Positions 1-7,037 of a stretch of DNA of 7,037 nt are shown piece by piece. This DNA is from a virus, in the IMG/VR virus record IMGVR_UViG_3300045988_000192, positions 1 to 7,037 of that record; one strand, written 5' to 3'. A program made the translations under genes and the position numbers. The notes beneath the pieces were generated by a model. The model searched no databases. It was not told where the DNA came from and saw nothing but the letters and a program-made list of their open reading frames with translations. The stretch's first letter is position 1. The number at the start of each line of letters is the position of its first letter.

Positions 1-55
1 TACTGGTTACATTTCTTCTATTCAATCTACCGTTCAAAGCGAAAAACTTGCTGGT
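1..55. repeat. Terminal redundancy of the window. Positions 1-55 are identical to 6983-7037, which marks a circular (or concatemeric) replicon of 6982 nt.
   Basis: Direct reading: tactggttacatttcttctattcaatctaccgttcaaagcgaaaaacttgctggt occurs at both ends. Confidence 0.95.
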
Positions 56-910
56 TTTACTGGTGATTTGTTTGCTACTGGTTCTTTGAAAATTTCTGCC
101 TTGCGTTCTGCCACTGCATTACAGAAGTACAAAGAAGTACAAAATAGCAATGACCCCGATTTTGCTAATCAAGTCTTGGCACATTTTGGTATTAAGCCAA
201 AGGTTGATGCCCGCACATCAATTTTTATTGGTGGTGATGATAAAACTTTAAGCATTAACCCTCAAGTAAATACCAATTTCCTTGATGGTGGTCAGCCAGA
301 TATTAAGGCTATAGGTGTTGGTGATTTATCTGCGGGTTGTAAATTTACAGCTACTACTTATGGTATGATTATCGGTATATATCGTGCCGTTCCGCAGTTG
401 GATTATGCACATGTTGGTATTGATAGAAATTTGTTTAAGACTGATGCAACCGATTTTCCTATCCCTGAATTGGATTCTATCGGTATGCAGACACAATTCA
501 GATGTGAGTTGAGTGCTCCTTTTATTGGTACGTCTGATAAAGTTGTGCCTTTTGATACTTATCGAACTGCTATTAATATGGGTCTTACTTACGGCTATGC
601 ACCTCGTTATGCTGAATTAAAAAGTGCTCGTGATTATTACGAAGGTGGTTTTATTGGTTCTTATTCGTCTTGGGTTACTGGCTATAATAATTCGTTCCTC
701 AGTCGTTGGCGTGCAGATGTTGGAACTGTGTCAGTTTCTTCTTATGTTGGTATTGATGACTTATTTAAGTGTCGTCCGTCTTTACTCTATCCTATCTTTG
801 TAAATCAATGGTCGGGTACTGTTAATGATGATAAGTTGCTTATCGGTAGTGTTAATACATGTGTTGCAGTCCGTCCATTCAGTATGTACGGTTTGCCTTA
901 CTCTAAATAA
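1..910 (+). CDS. Major capsid protein VP1, 3' portion. Codons start at position 2 and the stop is TAA at 908-910. Same gene as 5841..7037.
   Basis: Frame continuity across the 55-nt terminal overlap: ...STNLTQSDTGYISSIQSTVQSEKLAG | FTGDLFATGSLKISALRS.... The track's start at 68 is a TTG artefact. The length and composition fit a jelly-roll capsid protein with large insertion loops. Confidence 0.9.
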   Translation, partial: TGYISSIQSTVQSEKLAGFTGDLFATGSLKISALRSATALQKYKEVQNSNDPDFANQVLAHFGIKPKVDARTSIFIGGDDKTLSINPQVNTNFLDGGQPDIKAIGVGDLSAGCKFTATTYGMIIGIYRAVPQLDYAHVGIDRNLFKTDATDFPIPELDSIGMQTQFRCELSAPFIGTSDKVVPFDTYRTAINMGLTYGYAPRYAELKSARDYYEGGFIGSYSSWVTGYNNSFLSRWRADVGTVSVSSYVGIDDLFKCRPSLLYPIFVNQWSGTVNDDKLLIGSVNTCVAVRPFSMYGLPYSK

Positions 911-927
911 TTTAAAATTGTTTGATT

Positions 928-1377
928 ATGAAAGCTAAAAATAAAGTAGTTTATGTTCCTCCTGTATATGAGGAAGTTCAGCACGAAGTTACGTCTGTTG
1001 ATGATAATAATAATCCTTTACGTACTTCTTTTCATACCGATGTTTCTTTGTTGCAGCGTATAGACAATATGCGTGCTGATGCTCAGACATTGCGAGAAAT
1101 TAAAGAGTCTCTTCAGCCTATGATTGATAACTCTAATTTCCGCTCTCAGTTTGAGGAGACTTTCGGTTCCCTGACTGATGATGAGTTGATTAATTCATGC
1201 CCTAGTCGTTATACGCAAACGGCTAGTGAAAAAATGAGTTATTTGAAAGAACTTGCTGCAAAAGATAAGGAAGCCCGAGAAAAGGCGGCTGCTGCGGCAA
1301 AGGAAAAGGAAGAGAAAGATAGACTTGATAAAGAAAATCAAGAGTTTCAGTCTCGTCTTATGGACATCTTTAAATAA
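928..1377 (+). CDS. Hypothetical 149-aa protein between VP1 and VP2. Acidic middle, K/E-rich predicted coiled-coil C-terminus. Possibly an internal scaffolding (VP3/B-like) or DNA-associated protein.
   Basis: ATG at 928; the track's start at 922 is TTG. The frame is open to TAA 1375-1377. Codon usage is similar to the neighbouring genes. It is tightly packed: 17 nt after the VP1 stop and 8 nt before the VP2 start. C-terminal tail: KDKEAREKAAAAAKEKEEKDRLDKENQEFQSRLMDIFK. Confidence 0.55.
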   Translation: MKAKNKVVYVPPVYEEVQHEVTSVDDNNNPLRTSFHTDVSLLQRIDNMRADAQTLREIKESLQPMIDNSNFRSQFEETFGSLTDDELINSCPSRYTQTASEKMSYLKELAAKDKEAREKAAAAAKEKEEKDRLDKENQEFQSRLMDIFK

Positions 1378-1385
1378 TTTCGCTT

Positions 1386-2843
1386 ATGTTATCTAATATT
1401 ATTATTCGGAGTACTGCCGCTTTTGGCGGTACTCCTTTTCGTTTAAATAAGTGTACTGCTCTCGGTTCTGCTGGTACTGGTGCCGCTGCTGGTGCTGCTG
1501 CTGGTGGTGTTCCTGGTGCTCTTGTAGGTGGTGCTTTAGGTATCGCTAGTTCGTTAGTTGGTGGTTTGTTCGGTAAACACAATACTGATAAAACTAATGC
1601 GATGAACTATAAAATTATGCAAGAGCAGAATAAATTCAATGCTGCAGAAGCCCAAAAACTTAGAGATTGGCAAGAAATGATGTATCGTATGTTTGGCACA
1701 TCTTCAGCTAAAGCCAATGATATGCGTGCCGCAGGTCTTAATGCTCTTCTTGGTGACGTTTCTGCAAGTGGTAATGTCGGTAGTGGTGCTTCTGCTTCTG
1801 CTGCGGAATCCGCTCAGATGATGCCTACTGATTATTCCTTTGTTGGTGACGCTGCTCAGCGTGGTTTGGCTGCTTACAATACTACTCGCTCTGTTGACGC
1901 TTCTGTTTCTCTCCAAAAGTCTCAAGAGAATGTGAATAAGTCTATTGAGGGTGTCAATATGGCTCAGAAAGGTTTTATGGAATCTCAAACCGATATGCAA
2001 AAAATGACTTATAAATTTGCCATGGATACTTACCAGAATAGACTGTTGCAAGAACAATTTAAGGCCGAATTGGCTAATTGGCAAGGATTTGATGCTATGT
2101 ATGATGCACGGTTAAAGGCTTTTAGTCTTTATAACGTCATGCCACAGGAAGTCGAAAAGAATGTTGCTCAAACAATGTCTTTCTATGCATCTGCCTTTCG
2201 TGATATCGCTGACGGTAAATATACGCTCAAGCAAACAGAGAATTATGGCAAGTGGTTATCTATTCAGCAGACTTTTGCACATGCTGCTACTGTTCAAGGT
2301 CAAGCCGCTTTAATGCAAGGTCGTGCAGCTCTTACTAATGCTAGCACAAATGCGAGTTACCTTAAACAGTTAGGCGGATATTATGGCTCTTTGACTTCGG
2401 GACAAAATATGTCAAATGATATGCAACGTTATTATACCGATTTCATGCTCGGTAAAATGCCTATTGGTAAAGCCGAAAATATTCTTCGTCAGACACCTTA
2501 CAAACATTTACTTGATTTGAACATCCAACAAAATGAGTGGTCTTTAAATAAGTTGATGCAAGAGCCCGATTTGATACGTTCCCTTAGTGGTATGTACAAA
2601 TCAGAGACTTCTCTTACTAATAAGCGTGTTGATAGTTATGATACCGATAAAATCTTTGAGCGTGGCGAATCTGTTTCCCGTATGGTTAAAAATATCTCTG
2701 ATGGTATTAGTAACTTTACGCCTAAACCTAGATTTAACAAAGGTTCTTCTTCGGGTGCAAAAACGACACCGCCACCGAGTGGTAAATCTTGGCTCGATGC
2801 TTATCGTGAAAACCCTAATTATAATCCTACAGGTTATATATAA
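1386..2843 (+). CDS. VP2 / H-like minor capsid (DNA pilot) protein, 485 aa.
   Basis: First in-frame ATG after an upstream TAA. The N-terminal Gly/Ala-rich hydrophobic segment (GSAGTGAAAGAAAGGVPGALVGGALGIASSLVGGLFG) is followed by long Q/N/A-rich predicted helical regions. That is the hallmark architecture of microvirus pilot proteins. It sits directly after VP1 and a small ORF, as in gokushovirus- and Alpavirinae-type genomes. Confidence 0.75.
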   Translation: MLSNIIIRSTAAFGGTPFRLNKCTALGSAGTGAAAGAAAGGVPGALVGGALGIASSLVGGLFGKHNTDKTNAMNYKIMQEQNKFNAAEAQKLRDWQEMMYRMFGTSSAKANDMRAAGLNALLGDVSASGNVGSGASASAAESAQMMPTDYSFVGDAAQRGLAAYNTTRSVDASVSLQKSQENVNKSIEGVNMAQKGFMESQTDMQKMTYKFAMDTYQNRLLQEQFKAELANWQGFDAMYDARLKAFSLYNVMPQEVEKNVAQTMSFYASAFRDIADGKYTLKQTENYGKWLSIQQTFAHAATVQGQAALMQGRAALTNASTNASYLKQLGGYYGSLTSGQNMSNDMQRYYTDFMLGKMPIGKAENILRQTPYKHLLDLNIQQNEWSLNKLMQEPDLIRSLSGMYKSETSLTNKRVDSYDTDKIFERGESVSRMVKNISDGISNFTPKPRFNKGSSSGAKTTPPPSGKSWLDAYRENPNYNPTGYI

Positions 2844-2849
2844 TAATTT

Positions 2850-2885
2850 GGGCGCAAAGGTTAAATCCTCTGCGCCCTTTTTATT
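2850..2885 (+). terminator. Rho-independent terminator downstream of VP2.
   Basis: Stem GGGCGCAAAGG (2850-2860), loop TTAAAT, stem CCTCTGCGCCC (2867-2877) with one mismatch in 11 bp, followed by TTTTTATT. It is GC-rich in an otherwise AT-rich genome and lies 7 nt after the VP2 stop. Confidence 0.7.
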
Positions 2886-2946
2886 CTTATGAAATAATAA
2901 AAATTTATATTATACTCTTAATGTATCTGTTTTGTATTTGTGTTCG

Positions 2947-2982
2947 TGCGCATTTTATACGTACGTACACAATTTAATTAAA
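2947..2982. promoter_or_regulatory. Cluster of short perfect palindromes in the AT-rich intergenic DNA: TGCGCA (2947-2952), TACGTACGTA (2958-2967), TTTAATTAAA (2973-2982).
   Basis: Read directly. Three palindromes lie within 36 bp, downstream of the terminator. Candidate protein-binding or promoter-proximal sites; function unknown. Confidence 0.3.
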
Positions 2983-3115
2983 CAGATACCTTATTTTGGT
3001 TTGTCTGCTAGAAAACCTTAGCTTTGCGCGGAAAAGTTATAACATGCTACTAACTACCTTTTTATGAAAATTTTCTTTGAAAATTCCTACTCTCTTGTTT
3101 GAGGTAGGCAAAAGT

Positions 3116-3131
3116 GGGAATACATATTCCC
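3116..3131. promoter_or_regulatory. 16-bp near-perfect palindrome GGGAATAcaTATTCCC. Candidate operator for a dimeric DNA-binding protein.
   Basis: The 7-bp arms GGGAATA / TATTCCC are exact reverse complements separated by 2 nt. An adjacent imperfect palindrome CCTAC(N13)GTAGG lies at 3088-3110. Confidence 0.4.
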
Positions 3132-3157
3132 TAGTTACTGCACTTTTGTTCCTCTTG

Positions 3158-3187
3158 TCTGAGCGCAACATAATAGACGCTATGACA
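3158..3187 (+). repeat. 30-bp direct repeat, copy 1 (tctgagcgcaacataatagacgCtatgaca).
   Basis: 29/30 identical to 3344-3373. A degenerate similarity extends about 10 nt on each side. Confidence 0.85.
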
Positions 3188-3214
3188 ATACTTATGAAAA
3201 ACACTAGCCTTTTG

Positions 3215-3330
3215 GTTCTTTTGGGCAATGCCAAAAGAACACCCTCGGTAGAGCCCGCGGAGCGTAAACGCGCTCGGTTCCGCGCGCTAGGCGGAACTCA
3301 GGTTATAGGGCTGAAAGCCCTAATCGCCAG
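3215..3330 (+). other. GC-rich cluster of four consecutive stem-loops between the two direct repeats. Candidate ssDNA complementary-strand origin (ssi) or small structured RNA.
   Basis: Hairpin 1: gttcttttgg (3215-3224) pairs with ccaaaagaac (3231-3240). Hairpin 2: gagcg-taaacg-cgctc. Hairpin 3: gttccgc-gcgctag-gcggaac. Hairpin 4: tagggc-tgaaa-gcccta. Local GC is about 60% against about 38% genome-wide. No protein-coding potential is convincing here; the only open frame, the 87-aa track ORF 3077..3340, runs straight through the hairpins and repeats. Confidence 0.5.
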
Positions 3331-3343
3331 TTATCGTTAGTTC

Positions 3344-3373
3344 TCTGAGCGCAACATAATAGACGTTATGACA
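3344..3373 (+). repeat. 30-bp direct repeat, copy 2 (tctgagcgcaacataatagacgTtatgaca). It also forms the left arm of a long imperfect palindrome.
   Basis: See copy 1. The period between copies is 186 nt. Confidence 0.85.
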
Positions 3374-3432
3374 TTAGAAAATTCTGCGTAGGCAAATTTT
3401 CCATGTCGTAACGTTTATTATGTTGTGCGTTC
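3347..3432. repeat. 86-nt imperfect palindrome. The left arm 3347-3374 pairs with the right arm 3403-3432, and the spacer itself contains gaaaatt (3377-3383) paired with aattttc (3395-3401). It would fold into a hairpin of about 38 bp with an 11-nt loop on single-stranded DNA.
   Basis: Left arm: gagcgca-acataatagacgttatgacat. Reverse complement of right arm: gaacgcacaacataataaacgttacgacat. There are 3 mismatches and 1 indel over about 30 positions. The right arm is an inverted third copy of the 30-bp repeat. Confidence 0.75.
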
Positions 3433-3574
3433 GGCGAAGCAGAAAAAGGACAATAATTTTGTCGTTTGAATTGCGGCGAAGGCGCTTTTCAAACGTCAAA
3501 ATTATGTTCTTTTTCACATTTTCGTTGGTCGAACACTCAAGCAAGTGAAGCGTGCGAAGCACGAAAAATATGCA

Positions 3575-3598
3575 AAGTCGGGTTACTTTCCCCGACTT
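3575..3598 (+). terminator. Stem-loop aagtcggg-ttactttc-cccgactt followed by a pyrimidine-rich tract. A weak terminator or attenuator candidate about 80 nt upstream of the small membrane protein gene.
   Basis: 8-bp perfect stem and 8-nt loop. The downstream ctccttcctcttg is U/C-rich but not a clean U-run. Confidence 0.3.
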
Positions 3599-3677
3599 CT
3601 CCTTCCTCTTGTAATTATTTTCTTAAATAGTGTTAACAAATTTGGTGCTTTCAAGTTTTTTATTTTATCTTTGCACC

Positions 3678-3896
3678 ATGAAAAAGGATATTATCAAAAT
3701 TATCATCAAAGTTGCATTGTATGCACTTGGTTTGATAGCTGCTTATTTTGGTGTCTCAACCATGACATCATGCAGTACGTCCCACAATGTAGATGCCAGT
3801 GGTCGCACTACTATTGTTACAGTTGATACCACAATTGTTAAACATAACGGCATTGTCCGTTCTAAAAATTTTAAGCCTTATGGTGAAATTGAATAG
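3678..3896 (+). CDS. Small secreted or membrane-anchored protein, 72 aa. It has an N-terminal signal peptide and a possible lipoprotein (SPII) cleavage site MTS|C at Cys32, followed by a Thr/Val-rich 40-aa extracytoplasmic tail.
   Basis: ATG at 3678 is preferred over the track's GTG at 3630. The n-region MKKDIIKIIIK is followed by the hydrophobic core VALYALGLIAAYFGVSTM, then CSTSHNVD. The frame is open to TAG 3894-3896. A TAtcTTTG motif (Bacteroidetes -7-box-like) lies at 3666-3673, but only about 5 nt before the ATG. Confidence 0.55.
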   Translation: MKKDIIKIIIKVALYALGLIAAYFGVSTMTSCSTSHNVDASGRTTIVTVDTTIVKHNGIVRSKNFKPYGEIE

Positions 3897-3909
3897 TCGT
3901 TGTTATATT

Positions 3910-3923
3910 GTCAAGGTCTTGAC
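3910..3923. promoter_or_regulatory. Palindrome GTCAAGgtCTTGAC in the intergenic region upstream of the ORF82-Rep-VP1 gene block. It overlaps a TTGACT hexamer.
   Basis: 6-bp arms are exact reverse complements separated by 2 nt. A -35-like TTGACT at 3918-3923 is followed 18 nt later by tatggt, a poor -10. A promoter call is speculative. Confidence 0.25.
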
Positions 3924-4030
3924 TGTTCAGTATCTTGTTAAGTATGGTCACTTAGATGAGTTTGTTGCTTTGTTTATGCCTAGTGTTGTTCATATCTTGA
4001 ATATGACAACTGCGCCTGTTTCTTGGGTGC

Positions 4031-4279
4031 ATGAATATCAGTGGTACAAACGTGTTTAGTTTTTTGCGTATGACAGCTAAAGATTATTTGACTGCTCTCA
4101 AAGTTATTAGAGAGATTCAGCGGAAGCAGGCATATTGTAGTGGTCAATCTAAACCCTATCTTGCTGAAACGTTGAAAGAGATTGAAATGTATTGTCCCTT
4201 GGATTTTTCCAAAAGTGGCGGTCGTGTTACTGAAAAGGTTATTTTAAGTTGTTATAACGGTAATTTATTTAGTACATAA
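4031..4279 (+). CDS. Small hypothetical protein, 82 aa (or 69 aa from the alternative ATG at 4070), immediately upstream of rep.
   Basis: Open frame ending at TAA 4277-4279, only 2 nt before the rep ATG (taaTTatg), which suggests translational coupling. Predicted helical, with mixed charge and four Cys. Same strand and similar codon usage as rep. Confidence 0.45.
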   Translation: MNISGTNVFSFLRMTAKDYLTALKVIREIQRKQAYCSGQSKPYLAETLKEIEMYCPLDFSKSGGRVTEKVILSCYNGNLFST

Positions 4280-4281
4280 TT

Positions 4282-5835
4282 ATGGCTTTATTCCCTCGGT
4301 GTAATAATCCTGTTCCTGTTGTTGGTCGACATGGTGTTACTCTTGTTGGCTGCCATTCGTGCATTCAATGTCGTGTTGCTGCTCAGGAATATCTTTGCAA
4401 GCTACTCGAGGTTGAAGCTTCTAAACATAAATATGTTGAATTCATCACAAACACTTATGATGATAAACACCTCCCTTATATAGATACTTCTTACCTATAT
4501 CCTTTTGGATATGCTTTGCGCATTCCTAATCGGGTAATTAAAAAATATAATCGTAGGACTAAAGAATTTTATTATGTAGAGGATAAAATTTCTAAGTCTT
4601 TTCGGCTTACCGATTTTGGGACTATTGACACAGCTTCTATGCTTCGTGATTACTATGCACGTATTGACAAATATTATAGTAGATTTCCGTTTCGGTCACG
4701 GGGCATACGTAATAATTCAGTTATCCCCATACTTTGGTATGATGATATTAGAAAATATATAGGTCGTTTAAGAAAATGGTTTTTAAAAGAATATGGTGAA
4801 AAAATACGCTACTACATTATTTGCGAGTACGGAACACAATCATTCCGTCCGCATTATCATATCCTACTATTCCACGATTCGCCTAGAGCGAGAGCGGATT
4901 TTAGGACTGTTCGGTCTTTGCCAATGTCCACAAGAGACAATCCGAGAGAAGTTTGTATTAAACTCGATTTGGCTCAATTATGGCTCTATGGTGATACGAC
5001 TACAAAGGTTACCGATGGAAATATGCAAGAATACGTGTCTAAGTATCTTACACAACATTCTGATTTCCCTCGAGTGCTTGACAAGTTTCCACAAAGGAGT
5101 TTTCACTCAATCTTATTGGGTTCAAAGAGCAAATCAGAGGTTAAAGAACTTTTTACCTCTAGAGACTTCGAAGCACTTACAACAGATTATGTTGTTAACA
5201 AAAAAGGTATCAGACGCCTTATTTCCATGTCAGATGCGTATTACTCTCAACTGTCCGTCAGATTTACAGGCTCTTCCTTTTTTGATGTTAACGCAACTTC
5301 TTCCTTATTTCGTTCGGTGGTATTCTGCGCCCGTCGATTCTTCTGCTCATCTGGAGAAATCTATGATGACGCAAGTGTAAGGGAGTTTTTGTTGTGGTTA
5401 CTTAACCCCGATACTTCTGCGTTATATAAACATATTTATCAGTTCCGTGCTGTCTATAGGTATGTAGAGGAATTTGCGAAGCTTATTTATAACAGTTCCG
5501 GTTCTGTAAACCCTTTAAAATCACTGCTTTATGCTGCACACCATCACTATTCGTTATCCTCCTGTTTAGGTTTGGATTCGTACACATGTTTAAAGTTACG
5601 TTTTGATTTCATTGCGTGGAAGGACTATCAAAATCTGGTTCAGTATTTCCAAGCTTTGGAAGATGATAAACTCTTTGCGTATGAAAATTATGCAAGTATG
5701 TCGCCTTTTACTGGTACTTATGATTTTAATATTTTAAAAACTCGCTCTATTTTTCAGTATCAAGTTCAACAGGCAAATATGTCTTATACTGAGAATATTA
5801 AACATAGGGCTATTGTAGATTCTTATAAAAATTAA
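4282..5835 (+). CDS. Replication initiation protein VP4 (phiX174 gene A-like HUH rolling-circle endonuclease), 517 aa.
   Basis: The N-terminal Cys-rich segment GCHSCIQCR resembles the conserved VP4 zinc-finger-like motif. Motif I-like EFITNTY. Motif II HUH: PHYHILLFH (nt 4847-4873). Motif III with two catalytic tyrosines EYVSKYLTQ (nt 5028-5054), compare phiX174 gpA YVAKYV. The stop TAA 5833-5835 lies 5 nt before the VP1 ATG. Confidence 0.92.
   Translation: MALFPRCNNPVPVVGRHGVTLVGCHSCIQCRVAAQEYLCKLLEVEASKHKYVEFITNTYDDKHLPYIDTSYLYPFGYALRIPNRVIKKYNRRTKEFYYVEDKISKSFRLTDFGTIDTASMLRDYYARIDKYYSRFPFRSRGIRNNSVIPILWYDDIRKYIGRLRKWFLKEYGEKIRYYIICEYGTQSFRPHYHILLFHDSPRARADFRTVRSLPMSTRDNPREVCIKLDLAQLWLYGDTTTKVTDGNMQEYVSKYLTQHSDFPRVLDKFPQRSFHSILLGSKSKSEVKELFTSRDFEALTTDYVVNKKGIRRLISMSDAYYSQLSVRFTGSSFFDVNATSSLFRSVVFCARRFFCSSGEIYDDASVREFLLWLLNPDTSALYKHIYQFRAVYRYVEEFAKLIYNSSGSVNPLKSLLYAAHHHYSLSSCLGLDSYTCLKLRFDFIAWKDYQNLVQYFQALEDDKLFAYENYASMSPFTGTYDFNILKTRSIFQYQVQQANMSYTENIKHRAIVDSYKN
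4793..5380 (+). CDS. Possible overprinted gene inside rep, in an alternative frame, 195 aa. Speculative.
   Basis: An uninterrupted 195-codon frame in AT-rich DNA, entirely within rep. Microviridae have precedent for overprinted genes (phiX174 B and K inside A; E inside D). There is no independent evidence of expression. Confidence 0.15.
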   Translation: MVKKYATTLFASTEHNHSVRIIISYYSTIRLERERILGLFGLCQCPQETIREKFVLNSIWLNYGSMVIRLQRLPMEICKNTCLSILHNILISLECLTSFHKGVFTQSYWVQRANQRLKNFLPLETSKHLQQIMLLTKKVSDALFPCQMRITLNCPSDLQALPFLMLTQLLPYFVRWYSAPVDSSAHLEKSMMTQV

Positions 5836-5840
5836 TTATT

Positions 5841-7037
5841 ATGGCTAATAAAGTTTTAGGTATGCATCGCCTTAAGAATAAGGTTAATCGCAATGCTTTT
5901 GATTTGTCTCATCGGCACATGTTTACCGCTCAAGTCGGTGAATTGCTGCCTGTATTTACTCAGTGGGTTAATCCTAATGAAACGTTTAAGATTGGATATA
6001 ACGGTAAAACTCGTACCGCTGCCCTTAACACTGATGCGTTTACTCGTATACGTGAAAATATCCAGTATTATTTCGTACCTTTTCAATCGCTTTGGAAGTA
6101 TTTTGAGCAACAGGTGAATAATATGACTAAGGGTGATGCTGGTCAGAATATTTCTAAGTTTGCAGATAGTTCGACAGAAGCTTCCAAGATTTCTACTTCT
6201 CTTCCCTATATTTCTTATGTTGATTTGGGGGATTGGCTTCATGTAATGTATCAACAATCTCTTGATGCTCTTGATGCTTATATGAAGAAGTATGAAAATC
6301 CCTCGGCTCGTTCTGCTGTAGATTTTAAAACATTTTGTGACCGTTCAAATGTATATTCGGATATTTTTGTTTGTGATGGTTACCGCCTTTGTCGTGCGGC
6401 TAAACTTCTTATGGCTTTAGGTTATGGCAATTTTTCGGTTATCATTCAGTTTGATATTTATTCTATGGCTGAACGTTTTGTTGCTGCTGGTAATCCTTGG
6501 GACGTTTCTGAATTTCAGGACTCTAGTTATGCTTTGGATTTTTCTTCATTTGAAACTCCTACTATTGTTAACAGTCCTAATTTGTCTATTTTGCCTTTAC
6601 TGGCTTATCATAAGATTTGTAATGACCATTACCGCAATGAAAAGTGGCAACCTTTCGAACCTTGGACTTGTAATATTGATTATTTGAGCCCTACGGATAA
6701 TATGAACGCAAAAACTTTTATCCAGTCTTCTACGTTTAATTCTGCTATGACTTCCTTAATTGATTTGGAGAATTCTAATTTACCTATTGATTATTTCACT
6801 TCTGTGTTGCCTCGTGCGCAATATGGTGACGAGTCTGCAGCTATGGTTGATATTCAGAGTCCTTCTAAACTGCTCTTTGATAATTCGGGTTCTACTCCTA
6901 AATCGGGTGCTCTTTTCGATGGTCCTTCTTTTGGTCCGAATGATACACTTATTAGGAGTAGCACTAATTTAACGCAGTCTGATACTGGTTACATTTCTTC
7001 TATTCAATCTACCGTTCAAAGCGAAAAACTTGCTGGT
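5841..7037 (+). CDS. Major capsid protein VP1 (phiX174 F-like), 5' portion. The gene has no stop inside the window and continues around the circular junction into 2..910.
   Basis: ATG at 5841 is the first in-frame start; the codon before the run is TAA at 5826-5828. The N-terminus MANKVLGMHRLKNKVNRNAFDLSHRHMFTAQVGELLPV is the typical Microviridae VP1 start. The frame stays open to 7037. The 6983-7037 = 1-55 identity puts the reading frame in register with the track's ORF 68..910, giving about 2052 nt (683 aa). Missing from the ORF track only because no stop falls inside the window. Confidence 0.9.
   Translation, partial: MANKVLGMHRLKNKVNRNAFDLSHRHMFTAQVGELLPVFTQWVNPNETFKIGYNGKTRTAALNTDAFTRIRENIQYYFVPFQSLWKYFEQQVNNMTKGDAGQNISKFADSSTEASKISTSLPYISYVDLGDWLHVMYQQSLDALDAYMKKYENPSARSAVDFKTFCDRSNVYSDIFVCDGYRLCRAAKLLMALGYGNFSVIIQFDIYSMAERFVAAGNPWDVSEFQDSSYALDFSSFETPTIVNSPNLSILPLLAYHKICNDHYRNEKWQPFEPWTCNIDYLSPTDNMNAKTFIQSSTFNSAMTSLIDLENSNLPIDYFTSVLPRAQYGDESAAMVDIQSPSKLLFDNSGSTPKSGALFDGPSFGPNDTLIRSSTNLTQSDTGYISSIQSTVQSEKLAG

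Follow-up and report, generated by a model that had tools for sequence, protein, structure and literature searches.

A small predicted lipoprotein of phi29-like podoviruses and of gut microviruses, encoded upstream of Rep in the latter: a candidate lysis protein

The only exit route worked out for a microvirus is that of phiX174 protein E; the gut microviruses of Bacteroides and Prevotella lack such an account. The stretch of DNA analysed here (IMG/VR virus record IMGVR_UViG_3300045988_000192, positions 1 to 7037, hereafter the window) belongs to a microvirus and contains, at 3678–3896 on the plus strand, an open reading frame (ORF) for a protein of 72 amino acids (aa). A preliminary description, made from the letters of the window, took the product for a signal-peptide protein, possibly a lipoprotein, and a candidate for superinfection exclusion (the first choice) or lysis. 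What, then, does this ORF do? We argue that the lipoprotein is a lysis (progeny-release) effector of this microvirus lineage, acting from the periplasm, and we give this reading a probability of about 50%. Its processing, localisation, role in lysis and target are what we infer from sequence comparisons and gene context. The features of the gene are as follows.

3641–3673, plus strand: Bacteroidetes-type promoter motif (−33 box TTTG at 3641–3644, 21-nucleotide (nt) spacer, −7 box TATCTTTG at 3666–3673)
3678–3896, plus strand: gene for the 72-aa prolipoprotein, stop codon included (ATG at 3678–3680, TAG at 3894–3896)
3678–3770, plus strand: predicted signal peptide, residues 1–31 (hydropathy, predicted helix, conservation)
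3762–3773, plus strand: lipobox M29-T30-S31-C32 (rule match; Cys invariant in 48/48 and 66/66 sequences)
3771–3893, plus strand: predicted mature peptide, 41 aa, C32–E72
3786–3860, plus strand: two-stranded beta-hairpin predicted by AlphaFold2, residues 37–47 and 51–61

The ORF product reads MKKDIIKIIIKVALYALGLIAAYFGVSTMTSC followed by STSHNVDASGRTTIVTVDTTIVKHNGIVRSKNFKPYGEIE. The codon of Cys32 is TGC at 3771–3773, and the 41 residues from this Cys onward include six Thr and five Val. On re-reading the sequence, the coordinates, the length of 72 aa, the position of Cys32 after M-T-S and the 41-aa remainder given in the preliminary description all proved correct. A homolog search among 5.8 billion clustered proteins (clusters at 90% identity, E ≤ 0.01) yielded 818 matching clusters, one with 1670 member sequences. 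The best 120 of the 818 clusters are 80–97% identical to the ORF, and the longest contigs recorded for these 120 are microvirus-sized (up to ∼7.3 kb, with one of 13 kb). When the window was scanned with a hidden Markov model (HMM) of the family, this ORF matched with E = 9e-33 and nothing else did. The matches agree from MKK on and longer N termini are not conserved; therefore, we consider the ATG at 3678 to be the true start. The GTG start at 3630 (88 aa) and database calls of 87 and 124 aa were rejected, as the extension is not conserved as protein. The N-terminal extensions of the 87-, 88- and 124-aa calls are unconserved translations of the promoter region, and the conserved ‘YLC’ in over-long gene calls is the translated −7 box.

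The 72-aa ORF is a real gene under purifying selection. It was located in all 39 loci first compared with the window (37 from IMG/VR and two GenBank genomes), and of the 40 sequences only one, locus L039, has not kept the frame intact, its C terminus being truncated and divergent. Thus, the gene withstands the doubt, raised beforehand, that the frame might not be kept even in the closest relatives. Pooled over 741 pairs by the Nei-Gojobori method (L039 left out), the ratio of non-synonymous to synonymous substitution rates (dN/dS) in the ORF frame is 0.23 for codons 1–66 (dS 0.32), being 0.156 for signal-peptide codons 1–31 (dS 0.44) and 0.334 for mature-part codons 32–66 (dS 0.24). In the other frames it is 1.2 (+1, dS 0.11) and 2.1 (+2, dS 0.06), and variation in the ORF is highest at third codon positions. 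The low ratio in the signal-peptide part, at a dS as high as 0.44, points to constraint on the protein and not on the DNA.

The N-terminal part of the product has the expected sections of a signal peptide: a Lys-rich n-region MKKDIIKIIIK (K2, K3, K7 and K11, four Lys within residues 2–11), an h-region VALYALGLIAAYFGV and a polar STMTS. Mean Kyte-Doolittle hydropathy reaches 2.13 in 19-residue windows starting at residues 3–12, and the sequence stays hydrophobic to about residue 30. No second hydrophobic segment was found in the product, whose C terminus is polar and basic (…RSKNFKPYGEIE; family members end like K-x-K). M-T-S-C satisfies the lipoprotein rule in the style of PROSITE PS51257 (Cys among the first ∼35 residues), applied as a regular expression: the n-region contains Lys, the residues between it and M-T-S-C are uncharged, and the Cys is residue 32. 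The signal peptide is unusually conserved at the protein level in the relatives of the window; in 48 sequences V12, A13, Y15, A16, L17, G18, L19, A21, A22, G25 and V26 are invariant. With the n- and h-regions present and the lipobox Cys invariant across a large family, the earlier call of a signal peptide with a lipobox is upheld on rule-based and comparative evidence, and Cys32 would be the lipid-modified residue +1 after cleavage by signal peptidase II.

The extent of the family was explored with a clade-only profile (alignment A1, restricted to the clade of the window), which retrieved 92 clusters at 50% identity from 1.84 billion representative proteins. A rule-conforming lipobox Cys is present in 80 of the 92, and 66 have both the lipobox and a DTT motif; in 51 of these 66 representatives the spacing from Cys to the Asp of the motif is exactly 18 residues. 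On inspection, the clusters without lipobox and DTT look like fragments, frameshifts or assembly chimeras. The lipobox appears as MTSC, LTSC, LSSC, VTSC, LASC, FTSC, LVSC, LQGC and other variants, all of them compatible. The part in front of it runs from 14 to ∼45 residues and differs in sequence, yet it always ends in the lipobox; members from podoviruses (see below) have short textbook signals such as MKKIIVLLMVVLTVSAC and MKPLILILISFLSSC. From the Cys on, the family motif is C-[ST]-x-x-[RHK]-x5-G-[KR]-[TA]-x-[IV]-[IV]-T-x-D-T-T-x-[IV]-x-H-x-G, followed by a tail with alternating hydrophobic and basic residues. Across the 66 representatives the mature peptide has 31–52 aa (median 35) and a median net charge of +2. 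A family of cleaved lipoproteins is expected to combine a leader that varies with a Cys that does not and with a domain conserved from +1 onward, as is seen here. One database protein, P0153 (254 aa), holds five tandem units of ∼50 aa with ATSHNVSA(R/T)GR, matching part of the lipoprotein; it is probably tandemly repeated or misassembled microvirus DNA read in frame.

Export of lipoproteins to the cell surface in Bacteroidota is signalled by acidic residues at +3/+4, in the forms CS(D/E)2, K-(D/E)2 or Q-A-(D/E)2 (PMC6222051). Such a signal after the Cys, which the preliminary description had considered, is absent in the window: the sequence is C-S-T-S-H, with no D/E at +2 to +5. Among the 66 representatives, D/E is absent at +3/+4 in 65 and at +2 to +5 in 64. 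Without the Bacteroides export signal, the mature peptide is predicted to face the periplasm.

We modelled the precursor by AlphaFold2 from a 61-sequence family alignment (A3); the mean predicted local distance difference test score (pLDDT) was 79. The model has a helix at residues 3–31 (block-mean pLDDT 85, 95 and 87 across residues 1–30) and then the hairpin (86 for residues 41–50 and 81 for residues 51–60), which bears the motif G42-R43 ... D50-T51-T52 ... H56 ... G58. The modelled C-terminal tail is of lower confidence and has no regular secondary structure. With a shallow clade-only alignment the model was confident only on the helix, with pLDDT below 50 at residues 31–53 and 62–72.

Searches for known relatives gave nothing significant. 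Pfam, PHROGs, NCBIfam and PADLOC contain no significant family for the ORF, and in them it shows no kinship to Llp, Cor, phiX174 E or any defence family; the lipoprotein family itself is absent from these libraries. Weak profile matches below cutoffs, driven by the hydrophobic or lipobox region, were rejected. These were DUF3185 (the only Pfam match at E ≤ 1, with E = 0.044), phrog_35642 (E = 0.0076, signal-peptide part only), phrog_301 ‘secreted protein’ (E = 0.042), MamI, and YgdI/YgdR (NCBIfam NF033216; 14.3 bits against a cutoff of 42, E = 0.029), whose match spans the signal peptide and lipobox and does not make the ORF a member. Foldseek found nothing at E ≤ 0.001 in PDB and BFVD. The hairpin also aligned, at low root-mean-square deviation but with E of 5–9, to TraT and to the stem hairpins of the pore-forming toxins CDTb, iota Ib and lysenin; these alignments were rejected as evidence since any long hairpin would align so. 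A sequence-profile search of PDB returned only chance matches, antibody light chains; neither sequence nor fold searches there gave a significant match, though complexes of Llp and Rtp45 are deposited. The lipoproteins form a new family unrelated to known ones, with a new predicted architecture of a lipid anchor and a single hairpin.

To see how widely the gene is kept, we scanned 80 distinct IMG/VR contigs, chosen by VP1 only (95% to 30% identity), with HMMs for the lipoprotein, Rep and M15 peptidase. The slot upstream of Rep is not on the contig in 15 of the 80 (no Rep, or Rep within ∼400 nt of the contig end). In the 65 slot-bearing contigs it is filled as follows.

53 of 65: family lipoprotein
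10 of 65: ORF of ∼102 aa with a 4-nt overlap onto the start of Rep (Peptidase_M15_3 according to Pfam in two examples)
2 of 65: a different lipobox ORF (…VLFIQSC/TVSLSV…VDST.I…)
0 of 65: empty slot
0 of 65: lipoprotein and M15 together

Contigs L081, L086, L090, L098 and L101 were rejected as cases with neither gene, being without the region upstream of Rep. L084 was rejected as a case with both, as its M15 gene lies outside the microvirus, in flanking tailed-phage-like DNA by a DUF2612 gene. On this 15.7-kb contig, from the clade with 41% VP1 identity, tailed-phage-like genes at 6101–7496 on the minus strand (a 265-aa M15_3 peptidase and a DUF2612 protein) directly adjoin the microvirus; either the microvirus has integrated beside or within a second prophage, or the contig is an assembly chimera. 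The other lipobox ORF (67–69 aa; L114 at 164–373 and L120 at 1748–1951) stands before Rep in genomes without the family lipoprotein or M15, and may be a very divergent member or a small lipoprotein independently invented in the same position.

Thus, the lipoprotein gene belongs to the core of these genomes and keeps a fixed place upstream of Rep, contrary to its earlier placement among accessory, possibly hypervariable cargo: none of the 65 slots is empty, and Rep and VP2 are less conserved than the protein, as VP1 usually is. Between clades, identity to the window is 43–53% for the lipoprotein versus 25–47% for VP1, 24–32% for Rep and at most 26% (or undetectable) for VP2. In the window's clade the gene ends ∼385 nt before Rep, with two small ORFs between; in other clades it overlaps or abuts Rep (offsets −15 to +4).

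The window itself encodes no M15 peptidase by a six-frame scan with the M15 profile, and Pfam found no cell-wall enzyme among its 15 longest ORFs, in agreement with the earlier statement that neither endolysin nor peptidase is encoded. Apart from VP2, there is no other real membrane-protein gene in the window, nor a peptidase gene. Roux et al. (2012) described M15_3 genes in six Alpavirinae, located in the VP2–VP4 or the VP4–VP1 interval, and proposed them as endolysins; most Alpavirinae are without this peptidase, and the small lipoprotein gene is not mentioned there (PMC3394797). In GenBank, 20 Microviridae records (from human, pig, dog, chicken and lemur gut) encode the lipoprotein; the gene is unannotated in most of them and hypothetical in the rest. 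Full-text literature searches found no description of a microvirus lipoprotein.

The family spans two virus realms. The clade-only profile also reaches members on contigs of ∼10.5–11 kb (E of 2e-5 to 4e-4 in the whole library, with matches covering the mature part) that encode a protein-primed DNA polymerase B, a Gp16 packaging ATPase, a connector and a phi29-type capsid protein. Judged by gene content, these ∼10.7-kb contigs from gut metagenomes are apparently undescribed small phi29-like podoviruses; the GenBank phage collection searched has no member of the group. In five of the contigs (L041; L052 and L053; L054; L121) the lipoprotein gene (51–55 aa) is paired with a Peptidase_M15_3 gene of 137–140 aa, overlapping its end by 4 nt or lying 3 nt after it. 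The paired lipoproteins fall into four clusters less than 50% identical to each other. The M15 gene of L041 has an apparent frameshift. The L052 enzyme begins MIPKYFTLEE… and has no signal sequence on inspection; by eye, a TATCTTTG −7 box precedes the L052 pair and a hairpin with a T run follows it, and the direction of transcription of the pair is against that of the remaining genome. The L121 contig (1–10699, 12 called genes) looks like a nearly complete genome. A protein of 64–68 aa with one transmembrane segment and a helical tail, conserved in these podoviruses and encoded among structural genes, is a candidate holin. There is also a second podovirus type (L042–L044), in which the lipoprotein has a long amphipathic N-terminal extension.

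The promoter motif of the window follows the Bacteroidetes consensus attributed to Bayley et al. (2000). The window has only two full bipartite matches to it, both on the plus strand and in the same intergenic region (chance would give 0.55, and two are reached in 20 of 200 shuffles). Among 37 distinct upstream sequences of the clade, 36 have the motif at a distance of 4 nt (in one case 5 nt) from the ATG, and the promoter bases are at least 90% conserved among clade relatives. As the promoter ends 4 nt before the ATG, the sequence suggests a leaderless or near-leaderless mRNA. For a Bacteroidetes host, scanning for sigma-70 promoters gave no useful information. The second motif, at 2995–3026 on the plus strand (TTTG-N20-TAGCTTTG), is upstream of a conserved structured element described below. 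The remaining features of the window are the following.

1–55 and 6983–7037: direct repeat of 55 nt at the window ends
Across the window ends (junction): VP1 (family scans)
922–1377: scaffold-like ORF
1386–2843: VP2 pilot protein (family scans)
2850–2877, plus strand: GC-rich hairpin and T run, terminator, just after VP2
3880–4059, plus strand: conserved ORF of 59 aa with no assigned function (61 loci match, 56–92% identity, full length)
4031–4279, plus strand: conserved ORF of 82 aa with no assigned function (60 loci match, 71–95% identity), with Rep/VP4 directly after
4282–5835: Rep/VP4 (family scans)

The terminal repeat implies that the window is a complete circular microvirus genome, circularly permuted, of 6982 nt. 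The terminator hairpin was listed on the minus strand in the scan; its plus-strand reading, followed by TTTTTATTCTT, also gives a T run. It is the only clear terminator at 2800–4400, and none follows the lipoprotein gene. The start of the 59-aa ORF overlaps the final 17 nt of the lipoprotein gene, which makes it the next gene of the same transcription unit; with overlapping ORFs downstream and no terminator after it, the lipoprotein gene would be the first of a genome-length operon. The 59- and 82-aa ORFs overlap each other and are specific to the clade, situated between the lipoprotein gene and Rep; neither has a family match or a transmembrane segment. Database protein P0163 starts with the sequence of the 59-aa ORF. 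An 88-aa ORF at 3793–4059 was rejected as a whole, since conservation is confined to its 3′ part from the ATG at 3880. No tRNA was found, and the intergenic Rfam matches are to sub-threshold miRNA families, i.e. generic hairpins.

A relative of the lipoprotein (50% identical, lipobox VTSMTSC) is encoded in an integrated microvirus on scaffold HF992559 of Prevotella sp. CAG:1185. The genes of this prophage run lipoprotein–small ORF–Rep–VP1–scaffold–VP2, beginning with the lipoprotein gene right after the left junction (attL). The prophage (locus L040) is bounded by a direct repeat TAATGCCGATTAGT, unlike the dif-like repeat of the window, and its flanks, judged from ORF translations, are presumably uvrA and lepA. 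Several further relatives are in contigs of more than 10 kb. The Prevotella prophage, these long contigs and the promoter type jointly place the group among the Alpavirinae-like microviruses of Bacteroidales. Lysogeny of the lineage is supported, and the earlier suggestion of a temperate virus is borne out by this prophage.

Since homology is silent, the argument on function is contextual. Lysis is suggested by three things taken together: the tight and conserved coupling to an endolysin gene in podoviruses, the strict either/or relation with M15 in the microvirus slot, and the universality and constraint of the gene in genomes without another lysis candidate. This context favours the lysis alternative of the preliminary description over its first choice, superinfection exclusion, which becomes the main rival. 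We propose that the gene would be transcribed, as the first gene of the single long operon of the phage, from the Bacteroidetes-type promoter abutting its start codon. The 31-residue signal peptide would insert the precursor into the inner membrane; Cys32 would be lipid-modified and signal peptidase II would remove the signal peptide. The product would be a lipid-anchored, periplasm-facing peptide of 41 aa, with one long beta-hairpin as its core. Copies would build up during rolling-circle replication until the envelope is compromised from the periplasmic side. In this way the lipoprotein would do the job of the M15 peptidase of sister microviruses and act as a partner of the M15 endolysin in small podoviruses. 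Conservation of the hairpin face suggests docking on a conserved host envelope protein and makes generic detergent-like damage less likely. The peptide could permeabilise the envelope as colicin lysis proteins do, could be a periplasmic ‘protein antibiotic’ or could activate a host autolysin. A more specific version is tentative: the lipid-anchored hairpin of 35–41 aa would be the sole lysis protein of Alpavirinae-type microviruses, docking from the periplasm (probably by beta-strand pairing) on an essential, conserved envelope machine of Bacteroidota, and a module exchanged between these ssDNA viruses and the dsDNA phi29-like podoviruses. Candidates for its docking partner are a component of outer-membrane biogenesis or cell-wall synthesis and a hijacked host autolysin.

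Several points weigh against a role in lysis. Homology to known lysis proteins was found in none of Pfam, PHROGs, NCBIfam, PDB and BFVD. The M15 microviruses are essentially one clade, the replacement pattern may reflect few independent events, and the VP2–VP4 gap is the usual landing site for acquired genes (PMC3394797). The co-occurrence of lipoprotein and M15 in podoviruses means that the two are not simply interchangeable. In L042–L044 the lipoprotein gene is the first at the opposite genome end, among early-looking genes and upstream of the DNA polymerase gene. Action on the outer membrane only could not free virions of 25–30 nm through intact peptidoglycan. It is also awkward that a prophage-forming lineage would place a lytic gene first, behind a consensus promoter. 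Finally, small periplasm-facing lipoproteins are the classic design for superinfection exclusion.

Receptor masking of the T5 Llp or Rtp45 type, which we regard as possible but rather doubtful, would place the hairpin in the inner leaflet of the outer membrane, where it would bind the receptor from the periplasm and alter its surface loops; infected or lysogenic cells, and receptor-bearing debris or vesicles left by lysis, would then stop binding virions. With the export signal absent, any exclusion would have to act from the periplasmic side, like Llp and Rtp45, and the size, lipid anchor and predicted orientation of the lipoprotein match theirs. The first place in the operon, directly beside attL in the Prevotella prophage, and the early-looking gene neighbours in the L042-type podoviruses fit this idea as well, and shielding of progeny from debris and vesicles could also explain co-expression with an endolysin. 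Families of the Cor type are common to unrelated phages using one receptor. Still, no exclusion or defence family matches by profile, and one motif is kept across clades with VP1 25–47% identical and in podoviruses with a different virion. Exclusion factors usually follow receptor specificity and evolve fast, whereas the lipoprotein ranks above Rep and VP2 in conservation; its gene is universal in the slot and not patchy, and what replaces it is a cell-wall peptidase, not nothing. Translational coupling to a late endolysin would also be atypical for an exclusion gene.

The periplasmic peptide may have some other task, such as modulation of the host envelope, inhibition of a peptidoglycan hydrolase of the host or of a competitor, or interference with an envelope-located defence. 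We find this unlikely, although no function can be assigned by homology, the M15 association could reflect regulation or inhibition of the enzyme instead of cooperation, and small lipoprotein inhibitors of lysozyme exist (MliC/PliC). The lipoprotein-bearing microviruses have no M15 to regulate, and universal retention in a genome of 6–7 kb argues for an essential step of the cycle. Quite improbable, in our judgement, is an uncleaved lysis protein like phiX174 E, with an active N-terminal helix that binds a membrane enzyme making or flipping cell-wall precursors (MraY- or MurJ-like) and a secondary C-terminal part. Such a protein would account for the stronger constraint on the microvirus helix than on the mature part (the dN/dS values given above, at high dS), and also for the invariant Y15, G18, A21, A22 and G25, which resemble helix-packing motifs; 31 residues are long for a lipoprotein signal, and the family has no other lysis gene. 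Yet the podovirus members keep the Cys and the mature motif with short, generic and unrelated signal peptides, from which it follows that the unit conserved family-wide is the lipobox with the hairpin and not the helix. The Cys is invariant in 66 of 66 representatives at fixed spacing, and there is no match to the Pfam family of phiX174 lysis protein E.

Small envelope lipoproteins of phages and plasmids are already known (spanins, colicin lysis proteins, Llp/Cor); new here is an unrelated family in microviruses. Colicin lysis proteins or bacteriocin release proteins (Lysis_col) and entericidin B are made as lipobox precursors of a few dozen residues and give lipopeptides of ∼30 residues. The lysis protein alone reportedly permeabilises the Gram-negative envelope and releases macromolecules, and its signal peptide is reported to be stable and active (Cascales et al. 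2007). The lipoprotein resembles them in its small lipobox precursor, with a mature part of 41 aa here, and an active signal peptide like theirs would fit the unusual conservation of the signal peptide. Unlike them, it has no sequence kinship and no place in the Lysis_col profile (no match at E ≤ 1), is encoded by phages in Bacteroidota and not by enterobacterial plasmids, and has a specific beta-hairpin motif.

The o-spanins such as lambda Rz1 (spanins are defined in PMC6139136) are likewise small outer-membrane lipoproteins with a lipobox, and in the podovirus relatives our gene is endolysin-adjacent. Here, however, there is no i-spanin gene embedded, overlapping or adjacent: the 59- and 82-aa ORFs encode no transmembrane segment, and the 64–68-aa transmembrane protein of podoviruses is not encoded adjacent to the lipoprotein. 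The lipoprotein is not proline-rich, has no conserved second Cys and occurs in microviruses without an endolysin; unlike the unimolecular spanin T1 gp11, it has no C-terminal transmembrane domain. Llp (T5), Cor (phi80/N15) and Rtp45 (Rtp) are also small phage lipoproteins, located in the periplasmic leaflet of the outer membrane; the periplasmic side is the one predicted for ours. Llp and Rtp45 attach to FhuA or LptD from that side, with beta-sheet pairing as part of the contact; Rtp45 is of ∼6 kDa and periplasm-facing, and binds partly via beta-strand pairing (PMC9586334, PMC12685063). In contrast to these three, our lipoprotein has no homology to them, is not encoded beside a receptor-binding gene, is a core gene product in two virus realms and is replaced by a peptidase. 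Like phiX174 E and other ‘amurins’, it is small and membrane-targeted and could be the sole lysis gene product where no endolysin is present. The E protein is an uncleaved transmembrane protein overprinted in gene D, whereas the lipoprotein is encoded by a stand-alone ORF with a lipobox; the part conserved family-wide follows the cleavage site, and the alternative frames have dN/dS above 1. The defensive hypervariable regions of gokushoviruses (Kirchberger et al. 2021, cited in PMC9239249) reportedly contain, likewise, small microvirus prophage genes proposed to affect superinfection; those regions are hypervariable, whereas the lipoprotein gene is among the most conserved in its genomes.

The non-coding DNA between VP2 and the lipoprotein promoter has two parts that deserve mention. 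An element at 3065–3157, at least 90% conserved in all clade members and more so than coding DNA, holds GAAAATTTTC…GAAAATTCC and the nested hairpins CAAAAGTG … GGGAATAcaTATTCCC … CACTTTTG; it could be a replication origin or a regulatory structure. In relatives, the counterpart of this element is directly upstream of the lipoprotein promoter. In the window, a non-coding module of ∼427 nt (3186–3612) is present that is absent from all 34 aligned relatives of its own clade. The module is flanked by TTCCTCTTGT at 3150–3159 and 3602–3611, a possible 10-nt target duplication, and is 85–95% identical to a segment in another clade with VP1 only ∼41% identical (L094, 94.6%; L092, 93.4%; also L085, L086, L088, L090 and L091). 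We read it as a probable horizontally acquired non-coding element, inserted immediately ahead of the lipoprotein promoter. Repeats of the form GAGCGCAACATAATAGACG(C/T)TATGACA are found as direct copies at 3158–3187 and 3344–3373 and as a partial inverted copy at 3403–3425, which makes a long hairpin (3341–3438) with only sub-threshold miRNA matches in Rfam. The repeat core CATAA-N6-TTATG resembles a dif/Xer site; the repeat-bearing module is a candidate integration (attP) module.

For annotation, the finding means that the gene has been missed or mis-called in GenBank and that many metagenomic calls of 87 and 124 aa read through its promoter. For the biology of these viruses, the 72-aa gene offers a concrete and cheaply testable lysis candidate, which turns the question of Alpavirinae lysis into a one-gene experiment. 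If it masks a receptor, that receptor would be common to two very different phage types, and the gene would be a determinant of gut phage-host dynamics. Single-gene lysis proteins have repeatedly led to new antibiotic targets. If the lipoprotein does act in lysis, it would point to an accessible periplasmic target in Bacteroidota, a phylum with few genetic handles, and as the sole lysis protein it would be the first lipoprotein ‘protein antibiotic’.

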